Virus record (IMG/VR): IMGVR_UViG_3300050013_000065
Span: 11,484-75,483 of that record
DNA length: 64,000 bases
Reading direction: 5' to 3' (one strand)
Source: a virus
Shown here: one piece after another, positions 37,087-63,803 of the stretch
Layout: each line of letters opens with the position of its first letter
Numbering within the stretch: the first letter of the stretch is position 1
Translations under genes and position numbers: made by a program
Notes under the pieces: generated by a model
Told to the model about the DNA's origin: nothing
Seen by the model: the letters and a program-made list of their open reading frames with translations, nothing else
Databases searched by the model: none

Positions 37087-37905
37087 CTAGGTTATCGTTT
37101 CTGCGTGTGTGCCAGAAATAAGAAGAGGTTTGAAGATTTGTTCCGCATTAAAATCTGGGTATTTATCTCCTTTGGCAAGATTATCCCCAGACCAAAGCGG
37201 CTGAAGATTCAGGTAGTAGCAAGCCAAAACAACATGTTGACGCTCCCCCAAGTCATAGGCGGACAAGGGAATTATGTGGTCTATGTTCCATCGATCCTCC
37301 CCTATTCCCCAGTTCTCCCAAGTCATTCCAGTTTGGAATTTAGATTCAAGGTGCGCCTTTAGTTCTTCTATAGAGCATCCTAAGTCTCGAACAGCCGATC
37401 CAGTCTTCGTGTTCGATTTAATTGCTTGGTTAAGGCGAGTACGTAAATCACAAGCGAGTTTATAGTTGAGGTCTTCTTCCTTCTTTTGTTTCTCAAACTC
37501 ATTCCTATGTCTACGATATTCGGGACTTTTACTCTTCTCTCTTTTATTAGCTTTATGCTCTTCGCTGGTATATCGTTTTCTACTTTTTTCTTTAGATTCA
37601 GGAAGATTTCGATACGCGGTATTTCTAGCAGATATTTCTGGTTTTAGTTGAATATATCTGTTTGCGTGGTACTCAGAAATTCGTTGTTTATGGATTTCGT
37701 AATACTCGTGATTCTTCTGCGAAAATCTTGAGAAATATTCCGGGTCTTGTTTCTTTTCTCGACGAGTTTGGTTACGGCAATCTTTACACCAAGAGTCTAA
37801 GCCGTTTTTCTTATTTTTATTTGCCCCAAAACAATCTCTACTTTTTCTCTCTTTGCACTTAGAGCAGAGCGCCGAGGTAGCTATTTCCAAGAATTCTGTT
37901 TCCAT
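37087..37905 (-). CDS. Free-standing HNH homing endonuclease
   Basis: LGCSIEELKAHLESKF..GMTWENWG...W.IDHIIPL...NLQPLW..DNL.KG; N-terminal Zn finger. Confidence 0.85.
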   Translation of the reverse strand: METEFLEIATSALCSKCKERKSRDCFGANKNKKNGLDSWCKDCRNQTRREKKQDPEYFSRFSQKNHEYYEIHKQRISEYHANRYIQLKPEISARNTAYRNLPESKEKSRKRYTSEEHKANKREKSKSPEYRRHRNEFEKQKKEEDLNYKLACDLRTRLNQAIKSNTKTGSAVRDLGCSIEELKAHLESKFQTGMTWENWGIGEDRWNIDHIIPLSAYDLGERQHVVLACYYLNLQPLWSGDNLAKGDKYPDFNAEQIFKPLLISGTHAETIT

Positions 37906-38564: not shown

Positions 38565-38889
38565 TGCTGTCTCCAGAATTTACTGTCACGTCGGGACCAA
38601 ACATAGTCTTCGTTGTTACTCCGGCTGTAAAAGGACCCGGGCCTTGCTCTACTTCTGGGACTGGAAATTCGAACGAGATTCCCTCGTATTCGGCTTCCAA
38701 CTCCTGGACAAATTCTCGGAGATCCGTGTGCTTGACGTAGGGAGATTTGCGGACCCACAGAAGCTCCACAGCAAATTTACGATAGTCTCTGGGGGCAGCG
38801 TCATTGCGAGCTAAGTCGCGGAGGGTAGAGTCGGGGAGGGGGTTAAGATGGCGGTACCCATCTGAAAAAGGATCGGCTATTTTTGGCAT
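38548..38889 (-). CDS. Hypothetical protein
   Basis: GAGGA RBS before ATG 38889. Confidence 0.6.
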   Translation of the reverse strand: MPKIADPFSDGYRHLNPLPDSTLRDLARNDAAPRDYRKFAVELLWVRKSPYVKHTDLREFVQELEAEYEGISFEFPVPEVEQGPGPFTAGVTTKTMFGPDVTVNSGDSNATSG

Positions 38890-38913
38890 TGTTCCTCTGG
38901 GTAGATACAAATC

Positions 38914-39190
38914 GCAGACCGTAGTAGAAAGTTAAGATCGGACGTTGCCCGGTTGGAGTCGTAATCTGACTACGATAGTAGAGGTCATCTAAAATCTTGT
39001 CGGAGCGACCCAACCTGCCCAACCTGCCTCCTCGCTCATTCAGGGCTAGTGAACGATTGGATTGGCTGGTTCTCTTGCGGTCTGCATACGTCCATTATCT
39101 GGACAAACTTGGGAGGCCGGGACAGTTGAAAGGAGGAAGAAAGAACTGTCCCGGCAGGCTGTCCTATATTTATGAAGGAGGCGGACAGCC
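38914..39190 (-). ncRNA. Candidate structured non-coding RNA
   Basis: Intergenic. Two GC-rich hairpins with CCTCCTT loops, a 15-bp motif hairpin, and a branched domain closed by GCAGACCG/CGGTCTGC. Confidence 0.5.
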
Positions 39191-39193
39191 GAT

Positions 39194-39415
39194 CTAACGA
39201 ACTCTGGTGTTCTTGTGTGCGTTACGAATGTGTTGGTGGAAATACGACCCGGGACTATCCGCTTGTTCAAGTCCGTCTATAAGTTCTTGCGGCACTTGGT
39301 GGTAGGCCACAGTTGCACCATTCAGAACGGTAGTCAAGCGTTCTGTATCCGGGTCGTAGGTCGATCCTTCGTGAATCTGACTGCTCTTCTTCTTGAGTTT
39401 TAATGGGCGGTCCAT
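39194..39415 (-). CDS. KTSC domain protein
   Basis: YDPDTERL...Y.QVP.E...L..ADSPGSYF...IRN. Confidence 0.8.
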   Translation of the reverse strand: MDRPLKLKKKSSQIHEGSTYDPDTERLTTVLNGATVAYHQVPQELIDGLEQADSPGSYFHQHIRNAHKNTRVR

Positions 39416-39588
39416 TACTTGCCTTTTGCGATCTTCTTCATGTTTTGGGCAAAGACGGCTTTCTTGGCCTCAGCGCCTCCGGCTTTCTTACCAGCCGCAA
39501 TCTTCTTTCCGGTGGCCTTGCCGAAGGACCCTATCGTGCCCTTCTTCTCCATTTTCTTCGTAGCGTTCTGAATCCATTTTTCGGCCAT
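39415..39588 (-). CDS. Small Lys-rich protein (57 aa)
   Basis: MAEKWIQNATKK...KKAVFAQNMKK; AAGGAG RBS; promoter upstream. Confidence 0.65.
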   Translation of the reverse strand: MAEKWIQNATKKMEKKGTIGSFGKATGKKIAAGKKAGGAEAKKAVFAQNMKKIAKGK

Positions 39589-39611
39589 GTTGTCTCCTTT
39601 GATTTAAGAAC

Positions 39612-39640
39612 ATTGTACTACAGTTTGGTGGGTTTGTCAA
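39612..39640 (-). promoter_or_regulatory. Sigma70-type promoter
   Basis: TTGACA-17 bp-TACAAT. Confidence 0.7.
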
Positions 39641-39750
39641 CACTTTTACGGAATTTTTATCCAAAAACCAGGAGAGTACTCATAGACAACCCCTCGGTGT
39701 GCTAGGAGCGGTCGAAAATCATCAGGAAACCTAACCAACTTGTCCATGAA

Positions 39751-39957
39751 TTATTTCAACTTCCAAAAGAGATTAGCTACGTGCATCAAGCCGGGCTCCC
39801 CAAATCCAGACCATGTTTCTTTCGCAAAATCCGAACCGTTCATTCGAAATAGCACAAACTCGGCCAGAGTGTTTTCAGGAGGAGGAGACTTCCAATATTT
39901 AGTTAGTCCCTCTAAGTTTGGGGGAAACTCTGATTTTTCAACCACGTGTTTGTCCAT
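39751..39957 (-). CDS. Small hypothetical protein
   Basis: AAGGAG RBS; the ATG is supplied by a 15-bp motif variant. Confidence 0.5.
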   Translation of the reverse strand: MDKHVVEKSEFPPNLEGLTKYWKSPPPENTLAEFVLFRMNGSDFAKETWSGFGEPGLMHVANLFWKLK

Positions 39958-40093
39958 TATTCGGACTCCTTCTTCGGAGTGATATTCCAGACCCATCCAG
40001 AATTGCAAGCAGCCAAGTGCTCCAAAGGAATCTGGTTGGGCGGGTAGATCACACCCTCTTTGTAGATTCTCGGAACTCCATCAGTTAGCCGCT

Positions 40094-40207
40094 TCATTTC
40101 TTCTTGGTCTTCTTTGCTTTCTTGGGCTTGGGTTTAGGTTTGGCTCCGTAGTACGTCGCGGTCGTGCTGGGCATTGATGGGCCGGTGGTTACTGAGGCGT
40201 TAGGCAT
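40094..40207 (-). CDS. Small basic peptide (37 aa)
   Basis: GAGGA RBS; poly-Lys/Pro tail; promoter-like TTGCAA-16-TATAAT at 40321-40294. Confidence 0.45.
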   Translation of the reverse strand: MPNASVTTGPSMPSTTATYYGAKPKPKPKKAKKTKKK

Positions 40208-40338
40208 TGGCGAAATCCTCACATGAGAGTTTGGGCTTCCGGGGACCGCGGTGAGGCGCGGCCCCCTTCAACCGTTTGTTCGAACATAGTAGTATTATAT
40301 CACACTTTCGTGCAATTGCAACAACTATTTTCGAATTT

Positions 40339-43300
40339 TTACGATGACGACGTTTCTGACTGCAAACGCTGCTTGTTGCGTCCATTATCTGGACGGGTCG
40401 ATCATTTCTGTCGGCCTCATACGGTTTCGTTTTCCGTATGGTCGGACTGTTGCATACTCTTTCGAGTCTTCTTCGCTCAGTCTCTCACGGTCTCTTTCGA
40501 GTTCCGCCTCGTCACCATTTCAGGGTTCGAGTCAATCAGAAGAAGTTTAGGCTCCGCCGCTGCTTTAACGGAGTGTCATCGTGCTTCCCGGCACATGTTA
40601 CTCATTCTAAACATCTTAGAACGGAGTAGATCGTTTCCGTCTACTTCATACGGTTTTTGTTTCCCGTATGCTCGGACTATTGCATGTCCATTATCTGGAC
40701 CCGCTTCGCTTAGTCTCTCAGCCTGCTTTCGCTTGGCCCTCCTTGGCATTTCAGCGTCGGAGTCAATCAGAAGTGGTTTATACTGCGCCCGTATGTTAAC
40801 GCAGTGTGTTGGTGTAGCGCACATTGTAAGAAACCCATCCGCCAATTTGGCGAGCTGGATCGCTCACGCTTCCCTGCTCAGGAGCACTCTGAATAAACAG
40901 CTTATAGTTCTTCGAGCCGTCATTCGGGTTCTTCCCGCGTATGTTACTCATTCTAAACATCTTAGAACGGAGTAGATCGTTTCCGTCTACTTCATGCAGT
41001 TACTATTTCTGCATGTCCAGACTATTGCATCGTCCATTATCTGGACGCCACTTCGCTTAGTCGTTCACGGTCTCTTTCGAGTTCCGCCTCGTCACCATTT
41101 CAGGGTTCGAGTCAATCAGAAGTGGTTTTCCTACGCAGATTACGCTGCGAGGTCCCCGGAGTTAAGGAACACAGAGAAGATAGCATCGTCGCCGAAAATG
41201 TAACTATTGTAATACGTATTGCCTGAAATAGTCACAGTGGGGGCAGTGGATGTCTGTTTGAAAGTAACACCCGCGAACGAGATGGTATCCTCATTCTTAG
41301 GCAGTTCAAACAGCATGTTGCGCATCTCGTCGCTTCTCTTGATGATGTCCGACAATCCGTTGAAGGAGGTGTCGTTCAAAACATCTCTGACAACATTAGG
41401 TAATTTTGTTAATCGGAGTTTTTACTTCCATCCGTGGTGTTCCGAGATTAGAACGCAGGGTGTTGCCTCGTTCAATAAATCCCCGGTCTCCCATGGGTGA
41501 CCCACTCCGTACAGGTCAGTCACCTGATCTGTTTTCTTACAGTCGCCTGTAAGTTCGGACTCTATCTTCGCCGTCCATTTTTCGGACGGGTCCGGCGTAT
41601 TAGTCTCTACGGGTTTGCCTTTGCGATTCAATTCTTTACAAAGAGAAATAATCTCATCTCTGCGCTCCATGCTTCCGAATCTATTCAGTTGCACATATTC
41701 TAACAACAGAGCCGCTTGTCTTTGTTTTATCTTCAGATGAGGTATTATGCCCTTCAACAGAACTTCTTTGCTTTCGTTTCCGAGAGCAACCCAGGTCCAT
41801 TGGTTCTTCCACTTTTTCTTAGCCATAGGTCTGAAATAAACGGTACCCCCAAATTTCTCCAATAACCAATCTAGAGGTTCTTTGGTGGTAAGACTCATGG
41901 ATATTCGGGAGTCCCGGTGTATGTAGGGCTTTCCCTTTGTGGATATAGAACGACCGCGAGATTTTGTTTTGTGAGACGTGGCCGCTATGTGGCCTTCTCC
42001 GTCTATTAGTCCCGCTGCGTACGCAAAATCTACTTCTGAAATAATTGAATCAGGCATCTTCCCTCGGTATTGTCTGGAATTTCACTACAACAAGTCTATC
42101 ACAAACGACAGAAATTGTCAACCAGAGATTCACCGATTTAGCCAGATTTTATATCCACCCTATATACGGCTTACGCCGCTTGGTGATAGTTTTGATAATG
42201 GATAATTCCACCAAATTTGTTGTCCACGAGAGGACGAGCGTTGACGCTTACCAGCGACTGAGCAGCAGACCGGATGTTATTCGCGGTCAGATACGAGCCG
42301 TTCGCAAGCTGGATGTTGACCAAGCTATCGACCGCAACAGCCGAGTCAGCGGTAAGCTGGACCAAGGAGTTGAGGGTGAGGGCTAGGCGGTAGTTTAGTT
42401 CGTTCCTTTTTGTTACCGTCCAGATAACGGGCGGGGCTGGTCATTTCTGCCAGCCTCTATACATCGCTGCATAGAGCGGACTATCGCATCACCCCGAAGG
42501 GCGTCCTCTTGTTTAGTCTCTACTGCTGCCCAGCCGAAGCCTGCTTGCAGTCTGTTGTCTCCTTGCGGAGAGTTCCAGCTTAATTAAAGAGGATTTATAC
42601 TGGCCCATTGGGTTAAGCCAGATTCTGCAATAAACCCGGGTCATCTATCGCGACATCCAACGCTAGGTCAGATGAATTGATGAAGTCGGCATATTGCCCG
42701 CAATGTGTTTAGGCAACCAACATCACTGTTGGTGCGCTCTCGCAGTCGCCTACGAGGTCAGACTCTATCATCTGTCCGTTATCCGGACAGGCAACCGTAT
42801 TAGTCGTTAGGGATATTCCGCGATGATTTAGTACTCGAAATTTTTTGATAACTTCTCGGGTCTCATCATCAGAAAGATTTCTTCGGTTTCGAAACCAGTC
42901 AAGTAGGAGAATAGCTTGCTCTCGTTTAGTAACCATATAAGGCAAAATAGCTAAGAGAGTAGTTTCCAAGAATCGGGTCGGTAGTACCCAATTTCCTAGT
43001 TCACGATGTTCTCTTTTGGAAGAGCTTACGCTGCCGCCAAACTTTTCAAGAAGGAAATCGAACACTCTCATGTCCGTATTGGGAAGCTGAATCTTGGGGT
43101 CGAAAGAACGTTTTGATTCATACAAACTCAAAGTTCCTTCGGCGTCTAAAATTCCGGCTAAATATTGATAGTCGTCCTTGCTCGCTGTAACTTCTTCTAC
43201 ATCTCTGTGCATTCTTTTTACTGGCTCAAAAAATCCGTTCCTAAAAGAAACGTAATCAGACAGTTCTTTTCTAGCATCAGAATTGTGGTAGCTTCTCCCC

Positions 43301-45011
43301 CCCAATCCAATAAATTGAACTATCGTTTCTCCTTGTCTCCGTTTCAACTTCAGAAGAGGGGAAACCATTTTCAATAGATTAAGTTGGTGTTCAGAATTAC
43401 TCACATACCAATGATGATTTGGTTTACGATTTGGACGCTTATCCTGTGTCGTGTAAAATTGTCCTCCGAAAGTATCGGATAGCCATTTTACCGTAGGCAG
43501 GTGCGTGGTCGCTACTTCTACCGTTGCATCATAGTTAATGTAGTTTTGTTCGTGCGGGTGGACTGCTATTCCCAAAGAACCATCGCCGTCTATTAAACCG
43601 GCTAGGTAGTTCCATCTTGCGGGGCTTATTTTTGTCTTATCTTTCAAACGGGTTTCCTCGGTATTGTCTACTCCAACTACTATACTACTACACCAAGTAG
43701 TATTTTGTCAAGCAGATGTTCACCGATTTAGGCTGCTTTTTCGACCACCGATATATTCATGGTCGCTACGATCTTGTTGCTGGACTCGCTGATGGGCGAT
43801 CCAACGGTTCCCTCAGCAGCCTGATTTAGGTTTGCTGCGAGCAGAGCGTAGGTGAAGACTTTTGTGTTTAGGCCGTCAGTATCTCTACTGGGGCGCTCTC
43901 ATCGTCGCCGATGAGAACAGGCTGTATCTTCGGTAGGTTGAGATAACGAATTACATCGCACAACTTCTTGCGGAGTTCCCTATTCGGAGAACTAGGAAGA
44001 CGAACAAGCTCCAAAGCGATCTTGGCTTGCGGTCTCTTGATTCTTAGGTAGGGAAGAACTTGGAGGAGGAATTGTTCCCGCCTTTCTTTTCCCGTCAACT
44101 CCCAAGTATAAAACTCCTCGGTGTTGTCGTGGGCCTTTGTCGTATGAAACCAACCTCCGTAGAGATCGAGAAACATTTGGACAAGGGGGCGGTAGTTGTT
44201 TCCCATCCGAATTCGTAGCATCGGTTTATTGTCTGGGGTGAAGGCGGCAGATACGCAACCTTCTCCGTCCATAATTCCGGCTATATACGCATGTGTTAGT
44301 TTATCTTCAACTTTTCCGTCTAGCGTCTCAGTCGTTAGGCATTCCCTGTTCTTCATTCCGCGAATCGTTTCCATAAGCTCTTGGCGTCTGGAAGGATTCT
44401 GTGCGTCTCCCAAGCTATAGAACTCCTGAAGTACGAGAGCCTCAGCTTTTTTGATGCGAAGATACGGAAGAATGTATGAGAGGAATTCGGGGGCAAACTT
44501 TTTGCCGTTGAGGTTCCACTGGTACCAAACCTGCCCTTTCTTAGGGGTGTGTTTGGTAAAGAAGCCACCGAAAGTTCTAACCAGCCATTTGACTATCGGC
44601 AGATTAGTATTACTCAAAACAATGCGTGGTTGGTAGTTGGTGCAGGGGCCGTTCGGTTTAACTGTTGGTTTGTAAATCGAAAAGCAACCCTCGGCGTCCA
44701 TCAGTCCGGCTACGTATGCTTTTGTTCGTTCTCTCATAGGGTCTTTGCTCGGTATTGTCTAGTTGACAAGATAAGAATACCACACCAGCATTCTATTGTC
44801 AATAGGGTTCCACCGATATAGCTAGATTTTAATTCAGCACTATTCAATACTGAATCTGGTTTCCCTGACGGAGCGGCAGCGGACGCTGCTTCGTCATGCT
44901 AAGGAAGGGTGTTTGTGCCTTCAGGTTAGGAATTGCTTCACGTTCATAGTGAATAGCTACGAGGTTGGGCAAAGCGCCCGAAGTCACAATTGATGCAGGT
45001 GAGTAACTCAT
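40339..45011 (-). CDS. Major capsid protein (N4-gp56 family-like), 8 exons: 45011-44849, 43858-43759, 42700-42616, 42404-42198, 41400-41165, 40937-40799, 40591-40568, 40368-40339
   Basis: AAGGAG RBS; exons sum to 984 nt (327 aa + stop). Motifs RPLP..QG..IQFF.Y, AEG, IGQYADF...SD, GIIHP, DP..QIGGW. Lies directly downstream of the scaffold gene. Confidence 0.88.
40369..40567 (-). mobile_element. Group I intron 7 of capsid gene (199 nt, no ORF)
   Basis: P1 CUCCGU/GCGGAG with U.G at the 5' site; P7 GACUG/CAGUC; ends in G. An alternative in-frame 3' site 3 nt earlier is possible. Confidence 0.85.
40592..40798 (-). mobile_element. Group I intron 6 of capsid gene (207 nt, no ORF)
   Basis: P1 CUGCGU/GCGCAG; P10 CCG/CGG; P7 GACUA/UAGUC; ends in G. 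Confidence 0.87.
40938..41164 (-). mobile_element. Group I intron 5 of capsid gene (227 nt, no ORF)
   Basis: P1 GUUCCU/GGGGAC; P3 CCACUUC/GAAGUGG; P7 GACUA/UAGUC; ends in G; the CT|C junction restores Leu. Confidence 0.87.
41422..42057 (-). CDS. Single-motif LAGLIDADG homing endonuclease (intron 4)
   Basis: YAAGLIDGEG; IIPHLKIKQRQA. Confidence 0.9.
   Translation of the reverse strand: MPDSIISEVDFAYAAGLIDGEGHIAATSHKTKSRGRSISTKGKPYIHRDSRISMSLTTKEPLDWLLEKFGGTVYFRPMAKKKWKNQWTWVALGNESKEVLLKGIIPHLKIKQRQAALLLEYVQLNRFGSMERRDEIISLCKELNRKGKPVETNTPDPSEKWTAKIESELTGDCKKTDQVTDLYGVGHPWETGDLLNEATPCVLISEHHGWK
42093..42121 (-). promoter_or_regulatory. Intron-internal sigma70 promoter for the intron 4 endonuclease
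   Basis: TTGACA-17 bp-TAGACT with TGn, between the P and Q core elements. Confidence 0.65.
42405..42615 (-). mobile_element. Group I intron 3 of capsid gene (211 nt, no ORF)
   Basis: P1 CUGGCU/GGCCAG; P3 UCCUCUU/AAGAGGA; P7 GACUA/UAGUC; ends in G. Confidence 0.87.
42701..43758 (-). mobile_element. Group I intron 2 of capsid gene (1058 nt) with LAGLIDADG ORF
   Basis: P1 CGACCAU/GUGGUCG; P3 GCAGCC/GGUUGC; ends in G; the AT|C junction restores Ile. Confidence 0.87.
42709..43647 (-). CDS. Double-motif LAGLIDADG homing endonuclease (intron 2)
   Basis: YLAGLIDGDG and YLAGILDAEG. Confidence 0.92.
   Translation of the reverse strand: MKDKTKISPARWNYLAGLIDGDGSLGIAVHPHEQNYINYDATVEVATTHLPTVKWLSDTFGGQFYTTQDKRPNRKPNHHWYVSNSEHQLNLLKMVSPLLKLKRRQGETIVQFIGLGGRSYHNSDARKELSDYVSFRNGFFEPVKRMHRDVEEVTASKDDYQYLAGILDAEGTLSLYESKRSFDPKIQLPNTDMRVFDFLLEKFGGSVSSSKREHRELGNWVLPTRFLETTLLAILPYMVTKREQAILLLDWFRNRRNLSDDETREVIKKFRVLNHRGISLTTNTVACPDNGQMIESDLVGDCESAPTVMLVA
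43868..44737 (-). CDS. Double-motif LAGLIDADG homing endonuclease (intron 1)
   Basis: YVAGLMDAEG and YIAGIMDGEG. Confidence 0.92.
   Translation of the reverse strand: MRERTKAYVAGLMDAEGCFSIYKPTVKPNGPCTNYQPRIVLSNTNLPIVKWLVRTFGGFFTKHTPKKGQVWYQWNLNGKKFAPEFLSYILPYLRIKKAEALVLQEFYSLGDAQNPSRRQELMETIRGMKNRECLTTETLDGKVEDKLTHAYIAGIMDGEGCVSAAFTPDNKPMLRIRMGNNYRPLVQMFLDLYGGWFHTTKAHDNTEEFYTWELTGKERREQFLLQVLPYLRIKRPQAKIALELVRLPSSPNRELRKKLCDVIRYLNLPKIQPVLIGDDESAPVEILTA
44774..44802 (-). promoter_or_regulatory. Intron-internal sigma70 promoter for the intron 1 endonuclease
   Basis: TTGACA-17 bp-TATTCT with TGn, inside the P5 hairpin. Confidence 0.65.
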
Positions 45012-45038
45012 TTAGAGATACTCCTTTGTTGTTAGTTT

Positions 45039-46214
45039 TTAGCGCCGACTTTGAGCACGTGCCCGACGAATAGCATTGAGGGTGTTCGCAACTTCTTCGT
45101 CTGTCATGTTCTCAAAATCCTCGGCTGAGGGTGCGTTCGGAGACTCCGGAGGTTTGACGGGTGTTACGTCATTCCTGCCAATTCCTAGTGCCGCTCTCGG
45201 GCGCGTAACCTGACTTACAATCCGTGAGTCGGGACGCGGCGCAGGTGCCGGTTCGTGTTGAACCGCTACCGGCGGAGGGGGTTCCACCGTTTCCGGTGAA
45301 GGTGTTTTGGGTTGCCTTGGTGCCTGAATCATCAAACCATCGTTGTTCAGGTCTTGGAAGGCTTCCTCAAGATTTTCGGCTGTGTAGTTTCCGGTGGAGA
45401 GTAGATTATTGAATACCGCTTCTTCATCTCCCTTTCGGATTGATTCACCGAGTTTGAACTTCGCTAGCCACTGAAGTAGCAGGTTGAAGTTCTGAAAATT
45501 TGTGTCCGCATAATAGTCGGGGTTATTCGCCAAGAAGGTTTTATTTGCCTGCTCGGCAGTAAGCTGATTGGCCGCGTACGATCCTTGCTTTGCTCCCTGC
45601 TGGGCGAGGTTCAGGACTTGGTCCATAGTCACCCCGCGAGTTTTTTGGAGTAAGAAGTCGTTGGCGGCTGCTGGATCTGACTCCCACAAAGTCCGGTATT
45701 CAAAAATCTCGTCTGCGGTGAGTTGCCGGACAGGAGACGGCTGAGGGGTCTGTGTTTGTGCTACTGGCTTCGCGGGAATAGCTCCGAACTTGATCTTGGC
45801 ATTCTGCTCCCGAATCTTCTTGGTAGCATTTGCCTGAGCCTTTAGAACTTCCAGAATCAACTTGTTCTTGGTAGCTCCTTTGTAGACTTGGGCGCTTCCC
45901 GCGCAACCTACGACCGAACCAACCCACACTCCTTTGTCTTTACTCAGGACTAGTTGGGTACCATCTTCGAGGTCCATTGTTTCTGGTTCTTCTGGTTCCT
46001 CGGGGGGTGGGGGCGGACCTGCTACAGGAGGAGTCTCGATAATTTCCGGGTCTAGGTTTTCCTGAGATGTGAGAACTGGATCTTGGTCATTAATATCTTC
46101 GTCGAGGTTGGGAAGATCGGGCATATTCCAATCTACGTTGTTTGCGAATGGGTCGGGGCTTCCGTCAGAGTTCAGGAGCCAGGGGTCAGATACAGGCTTA
46201 CTCATGTTGTTCAT
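45039..46214 (-). CDS. Capsid scaffolding protein (putative)
   Basis: Acidic, Pro-rich N-terminus and FENMTDEE... C-terminus; immediately upstream of the capsid gene. Confidence 0.65.
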   Translation of the reverse strand: MNNMSKPVSDPWLLNSDGSPDPFANNVDWNMPDLPNLDEDINDQDPVLTSQENLDPEIIETPPVAGPPPPPEEPEEPETMDLEDGTQLVLSKDKGVWVGSVVGCAGSAQVYKGATKNKLILEVLKAQANATKKIREQNAKIKFGAIPAKPVAQTQTPQPSPVRQLTADEIFEYRTLWESDPAAANDFLLQKTRGVTMDQVLNLAQQGAKQGSYAANQLTAEQANKTFLANNPDYYADTNFQNFNLLLQWLAKFKLGESIRKGDEEAVFNNLLSTGNYTAENLEEAFQDLNNDGLMIQAPRQPKTPSPETVEPPPPVAVQHEPAPAPRPDSRIVSQVTRPRAALGIGRNDVTPVKPPESPNAPSAEDFENMTDEEVANTLNAIRRARAQSRR

Positions 46215-47093: not shown

Positions 47094-47878
47094 TAGTAGT
47101 CGTCATCCCTCCAATCGTCGTAGTCGTACTCTGGCTCGTTTTCTTCCTCTAGTTTTTCCGGAGGGATGATGTCGGTTCTCACACTCCACTCCGGCCCAGA
47201 AAAGATTTTCTCTAACGCTTTCTCAGGGTTCTTGAGGGCTTTGCGGTATTCCCGAACGCCCACAAAAAGTTTATTGATCTGGTCGTCTGAGAGAGCGTCC
47301 AGACCTTCCGCCGGGTACGCGTAGCCCCCGATAGACTTTCTTTCGTCCTCTACCTTTTGGTAAAGTTCTTCTTGTGTATAGGAGGGGGTGAACTCTTCTT
47401 CCGAGTTTTGGGATGTGGGAAATTGCGTTATTCTCCCGTCCGGCCAGAATCTTGTGCCCGCAGAAGACCATCTATTAAACGAAGGCTTTGCGCGCCATTC
47501 CGCGTAATCTTTGTCTTCCGGGAGGAAAATTCTTTGGCAGACAGTACAGATTCCAACAGCCGCACCCGTATCCAAAGTGTGCCAGACGATGCTCGTCCTT
47601 CCAAAGGTATCTTGCATTTCGCTTAGAGGATTACAGCCAGCAACGTGGGGGCAGTTGTCTTGCTCGTCTTTCTTGTAACGCTCTTGTCTTTCTCGTAATT
47701 CTTTCGCTAGTTTTCTAAACGTAGATTCACGAGTTTCTTCTTCCAGGAGCGCCTGCGCTTTTCTCTTGAATTCTTTCAGAAAATCCTCTAGTGCGGAAAG
47801 AAGAGGCTGTAACAAATCTTCTAACTTTTGGGCCATCGTGTCTCCTGCATCAATCCGATGCCTCGGGGGTTTGTCCAT
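47093..47878 (-). CDS. Hypothetical protein with Cys/His Zn-binding domain
   Basis: CPHVAG...IVWH..D.G...GICTVC.R; paralog of 34160-34768. Confidence 0.7.
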   Translation of the reverse strand: MDKPPRHRIDAGDTMAQKLEDLLQPLLSALEDFLKEFKRKAQALLEEETRESTFRKLAKELRERQERYKKDEQDNCPHVAGCNPLSEMQDTFGRTSIVWHTLDTGAAVGICTVCQRIFLPEDKDYAEWRAKPSFNRWSSAGTRFWPDGRITQFPTSQNSEEEFTPSYTQEELYQKVEDERKSIGGYAYPAEGLDALSDDQINKLFVGVREYRKALKNPEKALEKIFSGPEWSVRTDIIPPEKLEEENEPEYDYDDWRDDDY

Positions 47879-48944
47879 TATCTGGACGGTTTAGTTGGGT
47901 GTCTATCCAATCGGCTATTTGGCGGTGTTCGGCGGCGGTGCCCACGTTCTTGATTCTGTTTGCTCGCCAACTGATTACCGCAACATTTCCGGGAACGTAT
48001 CCGAGTTCGGGGATGATCTTGTCTAGAGTCGGCGAACTGTCTTGCATCTTTCCAAGACCGGGCCTGATAGGTATTCCGAGAATGGGACAAATACTGGGAA
48101 TGAGAAAATCCTCTTTTGTGATAGAGAACGGAAATCCACCTCTCTTTGCCCGCCCTTTCGCGCTAGCGGTAAGCCGGTACAAATGCTTTTTAACAGCCGG
48201 AGTTGTCTCAAATACAAAAGAAGAAATACCTTCGATCCAGTTGGCAATCAGCCGGTGTTCTTTAGCCGTCCCGTCAGTCTTTAAAGTATTCGCCCGGTAG
48301 CTTATTACTGCGACATTTTCCCGAATGTATCCCAACTCAGGAACAATTCTATCCAAACTTGGAGATTCATCGTGATGAACTCCGGTCCCCCGTTCTAACG
48401 GTATCCCCAGAATAGGGCACAAGCGGGGAATGACCACATCTTCCTCCACCAAAGAAAAGGGTATATTATTCTCTTTGGCGCGGTTTTTAGCGGCATAAAA
48501 AATAGAGTACGAGGGTCTCTTCCGTCGCTTATCTTTCTGTTCTTCTAGAATGCGAGGCTTATTTTCCTCGTAAAAATCTTTACTTCTCGCAATATTTTTA
48601 TCTCGGTTTATGACGTGACGAGATCGACGATATTGCTTTATTTCTTCTGAGTGGGTTTCGTTATACGCTTTTTCTGCTTTGCGAATAGAGTCTCTATTTT
48701 TTAGATTATATTCTCGATTTTTAGCGAGTATTTCTTCTTTGTTCTCCGCGTAGTACTCTCTTCTTCTCCGGGAAAAGCAGGATTTACAGTCGTTTCGAAA
48801 CCCATCTTTCTTGCTTAAGTCTTTGTAAAACTCTGTTAACGGTTTAACTTCGCCGCACTTAGAGCAGCGTTTCATCATGGCTTCTTCTGTCATTTGGCTC
48901 ATCCTGAATATGAGGTAGGGCTTTGGGGACGATGATTCAGGCAC
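47850..48944 (-). CDS. Free-standing HNH-type homing endonuclease with tandem nuclease-like domains
   Basis: Zn finger plus two CPILGIP...SP.LD.I.PELGY...NVAVIS.RAN..K domains. Confidence 0.8.
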   Translation of the reverse strand: MPESSSPKPYLIFRMSQMTEEAMMKRCSKCGEVKPLTEFYKDLSKKDGFRNDCKSCFSRRRREYYAENKEEILAKNREYNLKNRDSIRKAEKAYNETHSEEIKQYRRSRHVINRDKNIARSKDFYEENKPRILEEQKDKRRKRPSYSIFYAAKNRAKENNIPFSLVEEDVVIPRLCPILGIPLERGTGVHHDESPSLDRIVPELGYIRENVAVISYRANTLKTDGTAKEHRLIANWIEGISSFVFETTPAVKKHLYRLTASAKGRAKRGGFPFSITKEDFLIPSICPILGIPIRPGLGKMQDSSPTLDKIIPELGYVPGNVAVISWRANRIKNVGTAAEHRQIADWIDTQLNRPDNGQTPEASD

Positions 48945-49013: not shown

Positions 49014-51092
49014 TTATAGATTCCCGCCGAATCCGGAACTACCTGTGTTTGGCTGGCCTGTTAATACATCTGGCTCAACGGCTCGTTTGAATGATTCGCG
49101 CAGCACGTCACGCGCGCTCCGGGCAATATTTTCGCTGTCTGCTTGTTCGGCTTGTAGTTGTGCCTTCTGCGCCAACAGAGCCTGTTGCTGCTGGAACTTG
49201 ACTTGCATTGCCCCACTTTGACTCTTCTGCTGTTGGCGTTGTAGGTCTTCTGGGGTCATATCGACGATTACATCGTTCTGGTTACGGAACTCAGAGGCTT
49301 CGAACCACATCCTACAGATTTCGTTTACGTCTATCTTTTTACCTTCCATAGCTAGCTGTTCCACCACGGAGGGATTGGCCAAGAATTGACTTAGGAGAGG
49401 AAGACCCTGTGACATGTTTCTCCTCGTAGTCATTTTGCTCCCGGCCAATACGGCGAACTTCACCTTGGCATTGAGGACCGAAACAAGATCGCCCCCATTT
49501 TGCACGTACTCGTGTTTTAGTTCATCCGAAAGGATAAATTCCAACTGCGAATAGGGCAACATCATCTGGTTCATTTCAGAAACGTCATACAAATAAGGCA
49601 CCAGCACCTGATTAGCCAGTTTATCGATACAATCGGAGATGATATTTGACGCGCCCTGTCCGAGTAGTGAAGCTCCGGCGGAGGATCGGGCGAGGTTAGA
49701 GTGCCCAGCCGACCCAGCATTTCCCTGAGAGGTAATTGGGTTAGCGCCCGACACAGAATCCACCCTCTGCTGAGACATGGCAAAGAGCTGGTTGGCTTCT
49801 TGTACTGGATCTCCGAACTTCAGAGGTTGTAGATCGCCTTGGGCGTCCACTTCGATCATTTTGTTGGGGCCGATGCGGATGCTTTGTGTCGGGACCGACT
49901 TTCCTTTTACACGAACCATAGGAGCGTTCAACTTCAGGTTCGCGATGTTCATCATCAGGTTTGTAATACCGGCTTGGACACGCTGTTCTGTGCCGATCAG
50001 CCGACCAAGACCGATAGACCAGAAAGCTCCGGGCTGGTCCCACCAACCGATACTCAGGAACGGGATTTTACCGTAGGCGTTCTGTCCGTTGTAGATGACC
50101 ACCTTTTTCTGGATCACTACGATTAGGGTTTTGTTGTCCCACCGTTCGAGGACTTCCAGAGGTTGCTGGAAAGGATCGACCGTGGTAGCTTCCCACGGAG
50201 ATTCCGCGCGCGCGTCCCACAAAGGATTGCGTCCGCCTTCTTGCTGGGGATTGGATTCGACGGGTTCCTTCGGGGGGAGAAACAACTCAAGCATCTTCTC
50301 GCGAGATGGAATATCGTAGCCTTCACGGTCGCGCAGCTTGTCAATATCGTCCCAGGTCATATACCGGCGGCGGACAATATATTTAGCTTTGCGGATGTCT
50401 GGGACTTCGAGACCTGGGTCCACCAGAATTTCCCGAAGATTGACTATGTGCTCAAAAGTAGGTCTGTCGATTACTTCTTCGATCTCTTCTACTTCGAGTT
50501 CGTCATCAGATATTGAGGTCTCAGGAGCGCCGGGAATAGTGCTTGGAATTTTGACAACTGGATTCTTCCGCTTGACGATCTTTCGAGTCTTGGTGTATTT
50601 TTCCCACCCTTCGGCGAAAATGGCTGTTCCGAACAGTAGACAGTTCATCAAACCAAGACGGAGTTCTTCTCGGAAGTTGATGTCTTCCAGTTGATAGCCG
50701 AGAAGGGCCGACACGGCGCGCGCACACTGCGCTGAGGTTCCGCTCCGTTCTTGAACCATAAAAGGGGGATTTTCGTAGAACAATCCGGCCAAAAGCTGGG
50801 GGTTGATGCCGTTGACCGCCGTAGCCACCGTGAAGAAATTTACCGAAGAAGCTTCAATTGAGGTACCCGGCCAGAAGTTCGGGGCATAAATCGAAGTATA
50901 GAGGTCTCGGGAAGAAACCCAGGCCATTATCCAGCTTTTTCTCTGCTCATCGGATTCTGCCCTCTCCGTATCTTGGACTACGAGAGCAAGAGACGCGGGG
51001 TCTCCGAAAGTCCCGGTATGCAGAAACTCTAACGCTTCGTCTTTTGTTATGTCCTGGTGCGGGTCGCGGACTGGTTCTGGAAGCTGGCTCAT
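49014..51092 (-). CDS. Portal protein (P22/podovirus-like)
   Basis: 692 aa; LLFGTA, ILVDP, YGKIPF, FWSIGLG...Q...N, Q-rich C-terminal barrel; synteny. Confidence 0.82.
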   Translation of the reverse strand: MSQLPEPVRDPHQDITKDEALEFLHTGTFGDPASLALVVQDTERAESDEQRKSWIMAWVSSRDLYTSIYAPNFWPGTSIEASSVNFFTVATAVNGINPQLLAGLFYENPPFMVQERSGTSAQCARAVSALLGYQLEDINFREELRLGLMNCLLFGTAIFAEGWEKYTKTRKIVKRKNPVVKIPSTIPGAPETSISDDELEVEEIEEVIDRPTFEHIVNLREILVDPGLEVPDIRKAKYIVRRRYMTWDDIDKLRDREGYDIPSREKMLELFLPPKEPVESNPQQEGGRNPLWDARAESPWEATTVDPFQQPLEVLERWDNKTLIVVIQKKVVIYNGQNAYGKIPFLSIGWWDQPGAFWSIGLGRLIGTEQRVQAGITNLMMNIANLKLNAPMVRVKGKSVPTQSIRIGPNKMIEVDAQGDLQPLKFGDPVQEANQLFAMSQQRVDSVSGANPITSQGNAGSAGHSNLARSSAGASLLGQGASNIISDCIDKLANQVLVPYLYDVSEMNQMMLPYSQLEFILSDELKHEYVQNGGDLVSVLNAKVKFAVLAGSKMTTRRNMSQGLPLLSQFLANPSVVEQLAMEGKKIDVNEICRMWFEASEFRNQNDVIVDMTPEDLQRQQQKSQSGAMQVKFQQQQALLAQKAQLQAEQADSENIARSARDVLRESFKRAVEPDVLTGQPNTGSSGFGGNL

Positions 51093-56400: not shown

Positions 56401-56811
56401 TTATCCTCTTGATATTGCCGCAGGCGGGAAACCCGGTGCGGGATTTTGTTTTGGTGCAGAATTCAGAGCAGACTTGCTCCACGGGAAGGATGGTTTAGGA
56501 GAAGGTTTGTAACTGGGGAGGCCAGCGGGAGAACTGTCCGGAGGGGGAGCGGACCACCCGTTTGGGCGATCTACTCGGAGGTGTGGCTGGAAAGTAATAC
56601 CGAATAATTCGTACGTACCGTTATTTACAACGTCAGACGACTGCTGTGGCATCTTTCCAATAAATTTCTGACCCGTCGGTGCGTTCCATCGATTCGGCTG
56701 GCAAGGGTCGCAAGAGTACTCATCAAGGACCTCGCCGTCATCGTCCGTTATCTGGACAAATAGTTTCACGCTACCCCCAAAATCCGGCCCCAAGGACGTT
56801 TGGCAGCCCAT
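56401..56811 (-). CDS. Hypothetical protein (start uncertain)
   Basis: Fills the gap after the terminase gene. Confidence 0.5.
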   Translation of the reverse strand: MGCQTSLGPDFGGSVKLFVQITDDDGEVLDEYSCDPCQPNRWNAPTGQKFIGKMPQQSSDVVNNGTYELFGITFQPHLRVDRPNGWSAPPPDSSPAGLPSYKPSPKPSFPWSKSALNSAPKQNPAPGFPPAAISRG

Positions 56812-58867
56812 ACGGCGTCTGAGTTGATGCTTCTGGTTCTGGTTGGAATAGATCGGCTGTTGGCATAATTGGCTGTTCGCTATTTATGATGTTTCCGTTA
56901 TCGTCCATCCATGATCCGTTCTGCGCCATATAGTCTTCGTTGAAGAGTTCGTTCCATCCTATTTGATCTATGCGGGAGAACATCTCTACGTTGTTTTCGA
57001 CTATGGCTTGGGTGGCGCGGGGGGCATACCGATTGGGCATCTGAGAGATGACATCGGGTATATCATCGTGGTGATGCGAGACCAAACATTTGGCCCATTC
57101 ACTATAAAAGACTTCCAGATTAGGTTCTTTGGGGGCCATGCAGGCATTCAAGAATTTTAGACGTCCCTCGGAAATCCAAGGGTACATCGACCGCATTCGG
57201 ACGCGCTTGGCATCTATTTGATTGTCGGGAGTTACCCAGTCAATATGAGAGCACAACTCAATTACGCGCGCGTCTCTTGTTCTGAGCGCTGTCGAAATAA
57301 TCGTAGGCTCCAAGAAACGAGACCCGGCGGCATCTTCAATTCCAATAACAAATGGATGCTCTTCTACGGCTAGATCAACTACGGCTTGGGCGAGGGTGGA
57401 GTGATTGAAGCGGTCCCGAACAATCTTGCGAACGTATCCGACCGTTTTCTTGTTGCCGGTCTTCTCTCCCTTGGAAGTAAGTTCATCTTCTTCTGTCCAG
57501 ATAATGGACGCGCCAGTCGAGTAGTCTCTACCTTTTTTCTGGCTGAAAGCAAAATCCCAAAACTGGCAGCAAGGTCCTTCTCGGGGAAGCATCTGATACG
57601 GAACAGTAGCCCGGAGCATCATCATTCGGTCAAACTCTACGTCACTCGTAGTCTGGGGGTTCTGGTTAAGCTGCCCCTCTGTGACTCTCTCGTTCTTGGT
57701 AAACTTTCCGACGAAGAACGAGTACGTAATGAGGTTGGGAACAAGCAGGGAGCAACCCTCTTCCCCTGCTTCTTGGTACGTTACAGGGCGACCCTCTCTA
57801 GACAGCTTATCAATTATTTCCGGCTTAATCTGACAGGCTCTACCAATAACAATGTCAACATTGAAGGTCTTGTTGTGCAGCTTCTTCCAGTTTGGACCTT
57901 CTTGGACTACTTCAATTTCTCCGTTGTTTTGGAACTTGTCTACTAATTTTCCGTAGTGATCCATTTCGTGGTATCTAGTACCAACGAATTGCAGAAAATA
58001 CCCATCCCCGCCGGGGACTAGCAGGTTTTCTACTAGGTCTAACTTTTCGGAAACACTTTGACACTGCGTTTCAGTTTCTGTGTTTTTATCAGAGACTGCG
58101 TCATCCGCTTTGATGACCTCGTAGTGTTGTCCGGATTTTGTTTTTCCCACGGACGACGCCGTTACTGTCGCCTCTTTGCGTTTTACCTTTTTGCGGGACC
58201 ACACTGGGCAGGTAAAGACATTTCCTTTGCGCATATCCTTTTCTGGGCAGCAGTATTCTGGCCAGAATAGATTCATCAGAGTAGGTTCATCTTCTCTTAG
58301 AACAAAGAATGCTTTTACCTCTGATACGAAGCCAGAAGACAAGCTGGCCTCGGCTGTTAGGTACAGAAGTCGTATGTGGGGGTACGCCAATACCCATTGA
58401 ACCGTGTCAATATGATCCGACCAGCTCTTGGCGCATCCGCGAGGCCACAGCAATACTCTTGTTTTAACTTTGCTGAGTTTGTGGATGGGAGTCTTGGGGT
58501 CCTTTTGGACATACATATCGAAAACAACGTCATAGGTCGGGTCGAGAAAAATATTATCTGCGACGGGTTTAATTTCTCCCGTTGTGCTGAGAGAAATGAT
58601 GTCCCATAAGAAGTATTTAGCCAACCACTTGATATCAAAAATACACCGCCGACGAACTTCTTTCCCCGCCCGCGAGTTGGGTACGTGATCTACTCCCAAC
58701 TTCATCTCATTCTCAAGATCGGGTCGTATTTCTTGCAGAAAGTTGTACAGGTCTTCGTTTGATATCAGGGAAGCTCCTGAATAAAATTCCTCTGGGCGGC
58801 TGTCGAGCAGGTTCGGATCTGTCCCATTCTTTATGATGAGTTCGTCAAACCGGTCTAAATTGTCCAT
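56771..58867 (-). CDS. terL: Terminase large subunit
   Basis: LWPRGCAKS (Walker A-like), HYEVIKADD (Walker B), VGTRYH..D.YG, and nuclease motifs FWDFAFS and HDDIPD. Confidence 0.85.
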   Translation of the reverse strand: MDNLDRFDELIIKNGTDPNLLDSRPEEFYSGASLISNEDLYNFLQEIRPDLENEMKLGVDHVPNSRAGKEVRRRCIFDIKWLAKYFLWDIISLSTTGEIKPVADNIFLDPTYDVVFDMYVQKDPKTPIHKLSKVKTRVLLWPRGCAKSWSDHIDTVQWVLAYPHIRLLYLTAEASLSSGFVSEVKAFFVLREDEPTLMNLFWPEYCCPEKDMRKGNVFTCPVWSRKKVKRKEATVTASSVGKTKSGQHYEVIKADDAVSDKNTETETQCQSVSEKLDLVENLLVPGGDGYFLQFVGTRYHEMDHYGKLVDKFQNNGEIEVVQEGPNWKKLHNKTFNVDIVIGRACQIKPEIIDKLSREGRPVTYQEAGEEGCSLLVPNLITYSFFVGKFTKNERVTEGQLNQNPQTTSDVEFDRMMMLRATVPYQMLPREGPCCQFWDFAFSQKKGRDYSTGASIIWTEEDELTSKGEKTGNKKTVGYVRKIVRDRFNHSTLAQAVVDLAVEEHPFVIGIEDAAGSRFLEPTIISTALRTRDARVIELCSHIDWVTPDNQIDAKRVRMRSMYPWISEGRLKFLNACMAPKEPNLEVFYSEWAKCLVSHHHDDIPDVISQMPNRYAPRATQAIVENNVEMFSRIDQIGWNELFNEDYMAQNGSWMDDNGNIINSEQPIMPTADLFQPEPEASTQTPYGLPNVLGAGFWG

Positions 58868-62810: not shown

Positions 62811-62884
62811 TGGAGCGGAGTAGGGGAGTTCGACCCCTTTCTCTGGTTTGGAAGACCAGGGCACAAGCGATATACCAACCCCGC
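62811..62884 (-). tRNA. tRNA-Gly(TCC)
   Basis: Anticodon arm CTGGT-CTTCCAA-ACCAG; encoded CCA. Confidence 0.85.
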
Positions 62885-62890
62885 AAATTG

Positions 62891-63004
62891 ATTGTTTGTG
62901 GAGAATTCGAATCTCCGAGTGGGTCCACTCATTTATAGTGTCCTGAGCGACCGCGCACCCACTTTAGCATCAGATCAGGGATAAGCCTCTACCCGAACAA
63001 ACAA
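62891..63004 (-). ncRNA. tRNA-like RNA with 8-bp acceptor/5-bp T-stem and no normal anticodon arm
   Basis: TTGTTTGT/ACAAACAA, 6-bp D-like stem, GGAGA-TTCGAAT-TCTCC. Confidence 0.5.
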
Positions 63005-63007
63005 ACT

Positions 63008-63085
63008 TGGTCCCCGAAGACGGACTTGAACCGCCCACCTATCTCCTATCAAGAGATTGCTCTTCTCAGGATGAGCTATTCGGGG
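63008..63085 (-). tRNA. tRNA-Ile(GAT)
   Basis: ATCTC-TTGATAG-GAGAT; CCA end. Confidence 0.85.
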
Positions 63086-63086
63086 A

Positions 63087-63162
63087 TGGTACGGACGGCA
63101 GGACTCGAACCTGCGGTGAACTGGGTGTAGACCAGCCGATTTAGCCTCTAATCTACGTCCGC
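63087..63162 (-). tRNA. tRNA-Val(TAC)
   Basis: GCTGG-TCTACAC-CCAGT; CCA end; C at position 33. Confidence 0.8.
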
Positions 63163-63168
63163 AAAACT

Positions 63169-63242
63169 TGGTACCCCGCCAGAGAATCGAACTCTGTCCA
63201 AACTGGGTAAAAGCCAGTTATGCACCATCACACTCACGAGGC
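63169..63242 (-). tRNA. tRNA-Lys(TTT)
   Basis: ACTGG-CTTTTAC-CCAGT; CCA end. Confidence 0.75.
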
Positions 63243-63289
63243 GTCTTTTGTCACTCTCGGATTTCTGGTTCATAACGTTCTCCTAAGAT

Positions 63290-63364
63290 TGGTGGGTTGC
63301 CCGAGAGTCGAACTCGGTTCTCTCGATTAAGAGTCGAGTGCTTCGCCGTCTAAGCTTGCAACCC
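63290..63364 (-). tRNA. tRNA-Lys(CTT)
   Basis: CTCGA-CTCTTAA-TCGAG; CCA end. Confidence 0.88.
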
Positions 63365-63365
63365 G

Positions 63366-63456
63366 TGGTAGGCGATGAGGGAGTCGAACCCGTCCCGGCA
63401 CTCTAATCTGGAGTTCAGGGTTTATAAGGCCCCGCCGCACGCCGATGCTATCGCCC
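63366..63456 (-). tRNA. Atypical tRNA, anticodon TAT, with long variable arm
   Basis: Acceptor GGGCGAT/ATCGCCT, loop CTTATAA, variable arm ACTC-CAGATTA-GAGT, bulged T-stem, CCA end. Confidence 0.6.
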
Positions 63457-63462
63457 AAAACT

Positions 63463-63538
63463 TGGTGCCAGCGGCTGGACTCAAACCAGCTACGACGGCG
63501 TTATGAGTGCCGCGACTATTCTCTTCGTCCTCGCTGAC
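63463..63538 (-). tRNA. tRNA with CAT anticodon (Met or Ile2)
   Basis: CGGCA-CTCATAA-CGCCG; CCA end. Confidence 0.75.
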
Positions 63539-63565
63539 TTGTTCTCAAAATGAGTACGTTCAAAC

Positions 63566-63636
63566 TGGCAGGGGATAGGAGAATCGAACTCCTCACGGCT
63601 AGATTTGGAGGCTGGCCTAATCCCAGATCATCCCCT
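63566..63636 (-). tRNA. tRNA-Trp(CCA), short D-arm
   Basis: Loop CTCCAAA, G discriminator, CCA end; the anticodon stem has mismatches. Confidence 0.7.
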
Positions 63637-63637
63637 G

Positions 63638-63714
63638 TGGAACCCTTGTCCGAACTCAAATCGGAATCTGACAAGTTCGTAGCTTGCCGCTTTATTCAGT
63701 TAAGCTACAGGGGC
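63638..63714 (-). tRNA. tRNA-Arg(ACG)
   Basis: GCAAG-CTACGAA-CTTGT; CCA end. Confidence 0.8.
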
Positions 63715-63720
63715 GTAAAA

Positions 63721-63797
63721 TGGTCTGGAGGGTGAGAATCGAACTCACTTGATAGCTCGCTTCCAGAGCGAGAGGCTAACCTTTTGCCCACCCCCAG
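63721..63797 (-). tRNA. tRNA-Pro(TGG)
   Basis: CTCGC-TCTGGAA-GCGAG; CCA end. Confidence 0.8.
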
Positions 63798-63803
63798 ATA
63801 AAT

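Follow-up and report, generated by a model that had tools for sequence, protein, structure and literature searches.

Classical phage group I introns are those of td, nrdB and nrdD of T4 and of orf142 of Twort, a gene with three introns. They are group I ribozymes with or without endonuclease open reading frames (ORFs) and are optional among relatives, features shared by the introns described here; however, they number one to three per gene and mostly encode GIY-YIG or HNH endonucleases. Here, we analyse a stretch of 64,000 nucleotides (nt) of virus DNA (positions 11,484 to 75,483 of IMG/VR record IMGVR_UViG_3300050013_000065), referred to in its full length as the window. On its minus strand, a 984-nt gene is split into eight exons by seven introns, some with LAGLIDADG ORFs, so that two exons measure only 24 and 30 nt and 79% of the locus is intron. 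This locus is very probably the phage's single, functional major capsid gene, N4-gp56-like and with the HK97 fold, colonised by seven mobile group I introns.

Fragmentation of a phage major capsid gene by group I introns, to the point of defeating gene callers, has been described before in a crAss-like Zeta phage (PMC7886860). There, the capsid gene (cMAG OLRF01000054) lies in five fragments separated by four inserts, three of which were known via endonuclease domains, and the authors left open whether the arrangement has an adaptive role or reflects a rampage of mobile elements (PMC7886860). The gene in the window differs in having seven introns, of which four lack ORFs, and eight exons within 984 nt, and its phage is an unrelated one from peat whose capsid protein is N4-type; furthermore, RNA structures are shown here by covariation, and ~28 insertion sites are found in the population. 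The location itself has a precedent in the capsid-gene intron of Cluster J mycobacteriophages (PMC3706429). Jug (jumbo gut) phages carry ~18.5 small group I introns per genome of 360–400 kilobases (kb), with terL in two to three pieces (PMC12880540). Like some of the introns considered here, theirs include many ORF-less group I introns of ~206 nt in essential genes, with splicing supported by junction-mapping metatranscriptome reads (PMC12880540), but Jug introns are spread over many genes, whereas all seven introns here lie in one gene of a 75-kb genome. For Bastillevirinae, 45 introns in 37 genes are reported, ~1.2 per gene (PMC11878797).

Mitochondrial cox1 of fungi offers a parallel outside phages, as it is likewise one conserved, highly expressed gene that serves as a reservoir of LAGLIDADG group I introns, with tiny exons and strain-variable intron presence; it differs in being organellar and in having mostly large ORF-bearing introns, at a density per coding kb that is similar or lower. 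The cox1 gene of Agaricus bisporus has 19 introns. In absolute intron number, fungal cox1 genes exceed the capsid gene (PMC2987802). A preliminary description of the window, made from the sequence alone, had called its intron load extreme, a judgement that stands against the published phage cases (PMC7886860 and PMC11878797) and falls against fungal cox1 and against the phage's own relatives, which have up to eight. Our search of the literature on heavily interrupted phage capsid genes found no paper in which a single phage gene has seven or eight introns and no description of this peat-phage clade. The kind of system is known, and its intron density is above any that we found published for a phage gene.

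Structure and identity of the split capsid gene

Between positions 45011 and 40339 of the minus strand, eight exons join into a stop-free reading frame of 984 nt that translates into 327 amino acids (aa). Exon 1 (44849–45011; 163 nt, nt 1–163 of the coding sequence) starts with an ATG at 45011, 9 nt downstream of a Shine-Dalgarno motif, AAGGAG (45021–45026, minus strand), and contigs from RNA libraries connect its end at 44849 to 43858. Exons 2 (43759–43858; 100 nt) and 3 (42616–42700; 85 nt) are each supported by translation, protein alignment, RNA-library contigs and spliced alignment, exon 4 (42198–42404; 207 nt) by translation and protein searches, and exon 5 (41165–41400; 236 nt) by translation, protein alignment and RNA-library contigs. 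Exons 6 (40799–40937; 139 nt), 7 (40568–40591; 24 nt) and 8 (40339–40368; 30 nt, with the stop codon) are supported by translation and protein alignment; by spliced alignment, the 24-nt exon recurs, flanked by introns at nt 930 and nt 954, in L068, one of the related capsid loci that are numbered in this way below. The introns, I1 to I7, measure 990, 1058, 211, 797, 227, 207 and 199 nt and sum to 3689 of the 4673 nt of the locus.

As a protein query, exon 4 retrieves a large family of uninterrupted proteins of ~327 aa, with the source name ‘N4-gp56 family major capsid protein’, and by itself matches a protein of Tunturiibacter phage Tunturi_3 that is annotated as the major head protein. The whole spliced product aligns with this head protein from end to end (39% identity, expectation value [E] = 4e-65), and none of the seven junctions coincides with a gap. 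Its closest uninterrupted homolog among those compared, P0019, is 95% identical over residues 1–327 of both proteins without a gap, and 38 other uninterrupted homologs are 79–83% identical. An independent spliced alignment at the nucleotide level, with an intact allele as reference, found the same seven insertions. It replaced chaining of exons found by tblastn, which overlooked exons under ~35 nt; boundary refinement was off by one at a few sites (in the window, nt 792 and 929 were given for the true 791 and 930). The exon map of the preliminary description (eight exons, 984 nt, 327 aa, with a ribosome-binding site and an ATG at 45011) is thus reproduced by translation, by comparison with P0019 and by spliced alignment, as are its intron share and its two very short exons by the measured lengths; the alignment to intron-less homologs that it had suggested is the gapless one just given. 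Inteins were considered for the inserts and ruled out: the lengths of five of the seven are not multiples of three, and several open with an in-frame stop.

Capsid identity and fold were assessed on intact P0019. This protein matches phrog_1357, a major head protein (E = 1e-15), and a Pfam search of it returned no family. Against NCBIfam TIGR04387, it scores 39.9 bits (E = 3e-10), under the curated cut-off of 60; by this score, it is related to that equivalog family without belonging to it. By sequence, a profile of 69 diverse relatives matches solved phage major capsid proteins. With a deeper alignment, the AlphaFold2 model of P0019 has a predicted local distance difference test score (pLDDT) of 88.7, and its top fold match in the Protein Data Bank (PDB) is the capsid of phage N4 (9e99; E = 7e-15, template modelling score 0.64), followed by hundreds of HK97-fold capsids. 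A shallow alignment had given an unusable model (pLDDT 42.6), and the profile made from it matched no PDB sequences. The capsid product that had been predicted for the spliced gene, of HK97 fold and the N4-gp56 family, is accordingly upheld by fold model, top structural match and phrog_1357, as tested on P0019. The preliminary description had named an intact capsid gene elsewhere in the genome as evidence that would speak against a split one; a search of the 75,483-base pair (bp) contig found no second capsid copy.

Other split alleles point the same way. The coding sequences spliced from six of them, with three to six introns, are each exactly 984 nt long and contain no stop, and the ratio of non-synonymous to synonymous substitution rates (dN/dS) is 0.03–0.07 between split alleles with three to seven introns, with synonymous sites near saturation. 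By these ratios, the split capsid alleles are under strong purifying selection.

Seven group I introns of two families

Two covariance models were used. The first, R1, was made from the cores of I5, I6 and I7; it has 44 pairs, extends from P3 up to the 3′ end and leaves out the P7 pseudoknot. Another 70 sites were located with it on related contigs, without exception on the coding strand in interrupted capsid genes; loci with intact genes gave none. When these 70 sites are aligned, pairing is seen in 94.4% of pair cells, versus 36–41% in slid controls, and both partners vary in 46 of 49 pairs; the P7 helix, absent from the model, is 96.5% paired and includes one invariant G-C pair. The second model, R2, arose from ORF-less introns of ~200 nt at other sites and in other contigs whose sequences match I1, I2 and I4 at the 5′ end and in the 3′ core. 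Thirteen such introns fold as P3, P4, P5, P6, P8, P9 and P9.1, with compensatory changes in 31 of 42 pairs, and R2 was built solely from these thirteen introns of other contigs. In the window, it matches both halves of I1, I2 and I4, as well as I3, I5 and I6 (E from 7e-30 to 7e-4), and nothing else; in relatives, it gives 130 matches on the coding strand within interrupted capsid genes and none in intact loci. The remaining 11.6 kb of the genome have no intron-model match except a marginal one at the contig end. That match, to R2 and truncated (10.8 bits, E = 0.006, model positions 1–53), lies on the minus strand at L086:1–72, where the genome contig starts, and may be due to chance or be an intron fragment where the assembly broke.

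By sequence and model matches, the seven introns, all on the minus strand, form two families. The first consists of the LAGLIDADG-bearing introns I1, I2 and I4. I1 (43859–44848; 990 nt, at nt 163 of the coding sequence) has a P1 of 8 bp and a terminal G, and is matched by R2 at 44661–44846 (32.1 bits, E = 5e-9) and 43860–43969 (58.6 bits, E = 1e-17); it is 98% identical to an intron at the same site in L004. I2 (42701–43758; 1058 nt, at nt 263; P1 of 7 bp, terminal G) is matched at 42701–42906 (96.6 bits, E = 7e-30) and 43542–43756 (21.1 bits), and I4 (41401–42197; 797 nt, at nt 555; P1 of 7 bp with its guide at intron nt 40–46, terminal A) at 41493–41734 (60.6 bits, E = 3e-18) and 41960–42166 (35.5 bits). 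The second family comprises the ORF-less introns of ~200 nt, each with a terminal G. I3 (42405–42615; 211 nt, at nt 348; P1 of 6 bp), which lies outside the R1 seed, scores 56.7 bits with R1 (E = 7e-15) and 41.9 bits with R2. The R1 seed members are I5 (40938–41164; 227 nt, at nt 791, with an extra P2 hairpin; R2 22.9 bits, E = 4e-6), I6 (40592–40798; 207 nt, at nt 930; P1 of 7 bp; R2 15.9 bits, E = 7e-4) and I7 (40369–40567; 199 nt, at nt 954; P1 of 6 bp). These three are paralogs with 73–83% identity (83% between I6 and I5, 73–78% between I7 and either of them), and introns orthologous to I7 are present at nt 954 in L056, L068 and L077.

In every one of the seven introns, P1 is gapless and 6–8 bp long with a U.G pair at the junction, and the guide begins at intron nt 11 in five. 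Among the introns of the population (n = 128), 92% follow a U, and 83% have the form U|...G. The preliminary description had proposed seven group I introns, six of them ending in G, each with a U.G pair in P1, and three with LAGLIDADG ORFs. Matches of R1 or R2 to all seven, the measured termini (G in I1, I2, I3, I5, I6 and I7) and the ORF analysis below agree with it, with P1 amounting to 6–8 bp rather than the 6–7 bp stated.

The ORFs of I1 (43868–44737, minus strand; 289 aa) and I2 (42709–43647, minus strand; 312 aa) each encode a two-domain LAGLIDADG protein, with scores of 35.3 and 25.4 bits against Pfam PF00961 (LAGLIDADG_1; cut-off 23.1); the 3′ end of the I2 ORF overlaps P7–P9.1. The I4 ORF (41422–42057, minus strand; 211 aa) is of single-domain LAGLIDADG type: it has no Pfam match, but it shows homology to both halves of the I1 ORF and of the I2 ORF (BLASTP, E from 1e-13 to 1e-19) and matches phrog_5046 (E = 2.5e-19). 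According to the R2 alignment, the ORF traverses ribozyme elements P7–P9 in both I2 and I4. I1 has its ORF threaded through the ribozyme core, with domain 1 before P7 and the second LAGLIDADG domain inside the P8 loop. The 5′ strand of P7 and P3′ of this intron form a conserved island in mid-ORF, and P3 pairs a 5′ segment with the island. Covariation is seen in P3, P8, P9 and P9.1 of I1 among seven orthologs at the same site, with compensatory changes in P3 and P8.

A 15-bp quasi-palindrome, GTCCAGATAATGGAC, was observed in 27 copies with at most one mismatch from 3381 to 62805 of the window, versus 0 expected. Copies include ones within genes and those at 40380–40394, 40686–40700 and 41032–41046; the element makes the P8 hairpin in I5 and I6 and the P9.2 hairpin in I7, and near-copies are present in I2, I3 and I4.

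Evidence of splicing in environmental RNA

The window sequence is found in peat, permafrost and freshwater metagenomes of 20 studies, and three metatranscriptome runs contain 23–29% of its sampled words. Contigs from these RNA libraries, of peat and permafrost, join 43858 to 44849 in two runs, omitting exactly the 990 nt of I1; further contigs join 42700 to 43759, omitting exactly the 1058 nt of I2, and 42404 to 42616, omitting exactly the 211 nt of I3. At I4, contigs from two runs join 41400 to 42208, with ten variant letters between. Exons have ~2–10 times the depth of introns in the RNA libraries.

All 28 differences listed in exon 1 of the joined contigs are synonymous. Exon 1 of the contig joined across I1 is identical to that of L004 at 159 of 163 positions, versus 123–134 of 163 for intact alleles. 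The DNA of L004 bears introns at nt 64 and nt 163, and both are absent from the joined RNA contig. Additionally, I1 sequence near-identical to that of the window is present in the same RNA libraries at lower depth. Splicing in nature is well supported; for this exact allele, it is supported, not proven.

Intron content among relatives

Population data come from a survey of 80 capsid loci from viral contigs. Approximately 45 loci carry one to eight introns, and ~30 are uninterrupted; after boundary refinement, ~28 distinct insertion sites are recognised in the 984-nt gene. Full introns number eight in L076, seven in the window and six each in L007 and L069. Each site is filled in some alleles and empty in others. 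Several sites hold an intron of either ~200 nt or ~1 kb, i.e. the same ribozyme without or with an ORF, an alternation expected of the gain and loss cycle of homing elements. Intron content varies even within a single sample: DNA run X1, the probable source sample, contains a variant with a different small intron at ~nt 548, ~7 nt upstream of the I4 site, and in X1, 41400 is joined to 40379 via 19 other letters at a depth of 37 versus ~140.

Seven introns in 984 nt and ~28 sites in the population amount to a natural experiment on the load of mobile ribozymes that an essential viral gene can carry; the system also displays ORF-less retargeting, the threading of ORFs through ribozyme cores and bent boundary rules (terminal A). 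There is a practical side as well. Gene callers overlook the shell gene, on which the classification and counting of phages rely most, both in this genome and in dozens of related phage contigs from peat and soil, and capsid-based virome surveys and annotations will miss or truncate such genes. The protein database contains many partial gene calls of 120–290 aa that match exon 4.

Probable selfish mobile introns and alternative explanations

We propose that the locus would be expressed as a late transcript of ~4.7 kb in which each intron would fold as a group I ribozyme, with the U.G pair of P1 at the 5′ splice site, a P3–P9 core and a P3/P7 pseudoknot. Two transesterifications would then excise each intron, presumably by self-splicing, to leave the 984-nt mRNA for the 327-aa capsid protein. 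I3, I5, I6 and I7 represent a single ribozyme family with each guide matched to its own site, and I1, I2 and I4 have acquired LAGLIDADG ORFs, which overlap the ribozyme core or pass through it. Homing is most likely driven by the endonucleases, through cleavage of intron-less capsid alleles in co-infecting relatives, and the ORF-less introns most likely spread via co-conversion or via reverse splicing into the very abundant capsid mRNA. For phage PhiPA3, an intron endonuclease is reported to interfere with a co-infecting relative (PMC11620839); by analogy, such competition may be a benefit of carrying introns and offers a lead as to why intron loads persist here.

Several points weigh against this account. 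Rfam at gathering score finds no group I match in the window: the best score is 27.1 bits versus the 50 required, and with lax filters RF00028 recognises I4 (27.1 bits, E = 7e-4) and I2 (17.7 bits). The check with Infernal group I models that had been suggested for the window therefore divides, as R1 and R2 match and RF00028 stays under its gathering score. In eight introns of relatives, however, RF00028 does pass that score (50.9–61.3 bits; two R2 seeds and six members of the R1 family), which ties both intron families to bona fide group I introns; the missed threshold in the window reflects the low sensitivity of the general model, not the absence of introns. I4 ends in A, against a near-universal terminal G. 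The small introns of the R1 family are without P2 and have a P5 of 2 bp, so that unaided self-splicing of them is not assured. As to RNA, the joined contigs are 93–97% identical to the window, i.e. they come from strain variants, and they could stem from an unsampled intron-less allele or from DNA in the library; no RNA cover was seen of the I6 and I7 junctions, nor of most of 40000–40900 in runs X15 and X17, a gap that is neutral as to splicing. Of the junction-spanning metatranscriptome evidence that the preliminary description had asked for, the joins at I1 to I4 were thus obtained, in strain variants, and those at I6 and I7 were without cover. Finally, we infer endonuclease activity and homing only from family membership and polymorphism.

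Some of these points are shared by an alternative that we consider somewhat unlikely: all of the introns derive from true group I introns, yet some (candidates are I4 and the minimal, P2-less I3 and I5–I7) have lost self-splicing and need a maturase (the LAGLIDADG protein or a host factor) or a sibling ribozyme. The terminal A would fit such a loss, and it is common to three other alleles of the I4 family (L078 and L081 at nt 555 and L075, placed at nt 558), with the 3′ boundary of I4 at 41401 fixed by conserved His|Pro codons. So would the missing P2 and short P5 of the R1 family and the 40–59-nt inserts of relatives (see below), which keep only P1 and P10 guides and a terminal G and cannot be autonomous. 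In Bastillevirinae, four of eight spliced genes are reported to be spliced only in infected cells (PMC11878797). Against a loss of self-splicing, the cores are complete and show strong covariation. Group I introns of the size of that of Azoarcus (~200 nt) self-splice well, which likewise counts against it.

The preliminary description had suggested that seven splicing events could act as a timing or GTP-sensing checkpoint, i.e. that the introns are an adaptation that delays or gates capsid synthesis. The chemistry would allow this, given that splicing requires guanosine and that all seven serial events, by established chemistry, precede capsid protein, and introns in this genome are confined to the capsid gene. 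Neither the number nor the position of introns is conserved in close relatives, however, which makes a checkpoint improbable: relatives at 80–95% protein identity have zero to eight introns at ~28 sites, with ~30 loci intron-free, as expected of dispensable mobile elements, and three of the introns in the window carry homing endonucleases, a signature of selfish spread. The same distribution favours selfish homing, and the capsid gene is best seen as an extreme hot spot of selfish mobile introns rather than as a built-in switch.

That the locus is a decaying pseudogene or an assembly chimera might be suspected from its invisibility to ORF callers and from the empty Rfam search at gathering score, but the chance of this is negligible, and both are ruled out by single-copy, selection, population and independent-DNA evidence: the gene is the sole capsid gene, its eight exons are in register without a stop and dN/dS is 0.03–0.07, in the probable source DNA run, 97% of sampled words are present and no bin is uncovered, at least half of the words recur in each of twelve more DNA runs of separate studies, and the independent contig L004 has the 98%-identical I1 at the same site.

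Core-less inserts in related capsid genes

At least 15 related loci have an insert of 40–59 nt between capsid codons Gly297 and Trp298, in at least eight sequence types (e.g. L076:8319–8364, L049:5864–5909, L013:3681–3732, L058:6285–6324 and L085:5799–5854); no such insert is present in the window. Besides guides for P1 (with U.G at the junction) and for P10, these mini-introns have just an intron-like tail with a final G, which leaves no room for a catalytic core. Their guides covary with the exons, and a retained insert breaks the reading frame. They always lie 16–48 nt upstream of a full intron; the alleles that carry them are otherwise intact. Two other explanations for the ~46-nt insert at nt ~890 were ruled out, namely a protein loop, because the length is not a multiple of three and retention gives stops, and translational bypassing, because the Trp codon is restored only by an RNA join.

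The full-size neighbouring intron may supply the ribozyme to the mini-intron. More speculatively, the capsid gene of this peat-phage clade could house a self-sustaining community of group I introns, in which the ORF-less family would retarget its guides by reverse splicing within the same abundant mRNA, the LAGLIDADG introns would serve as weapons against intron-less co-infecting relatives and the core-less mini-introns of relatives would borrow the catalytic core of a sibling. If so, trans-splicing of non-autonomous group I introns would have a natural example. A literature search on group I mini-introns found nothing, and the inserts open to direct test the question of whether non-autonomous partners are naturally spliced by group I ribozymes.

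Genomic surroundings

The gene order of the head module is large terminase (TerL; 56771–58867), portal (49014–51092), scaffold-like ORF (45039–46214) and capsid gene, as is normal for such a module. The scaffold gene that had been named upstream of the capsid gene stands by position, from which alone the label derives, and finds no Pfam or PHROG support. Against the phage collection, neither the scaffold-like protein (tblastn) nor 12 kb of the window (megablast) gave a match. Downstream of the capsid gene, ~1.8 kb (38565–40338) contain short ORFs only and have no match to the intron models.

Two free-standing genes for HNH/EndoVII-type endonucleases flank the head genes at 47850–48944 and 37087–37905, both on the minus strand. 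The former has a duplicated domain (phrog_3322, E = 2e-66; phrog_1035); both genes may represent additional homing elements. Seven clustered tRNA genes and one tRNA-like match are located at 62814–63881 on the minus strand.

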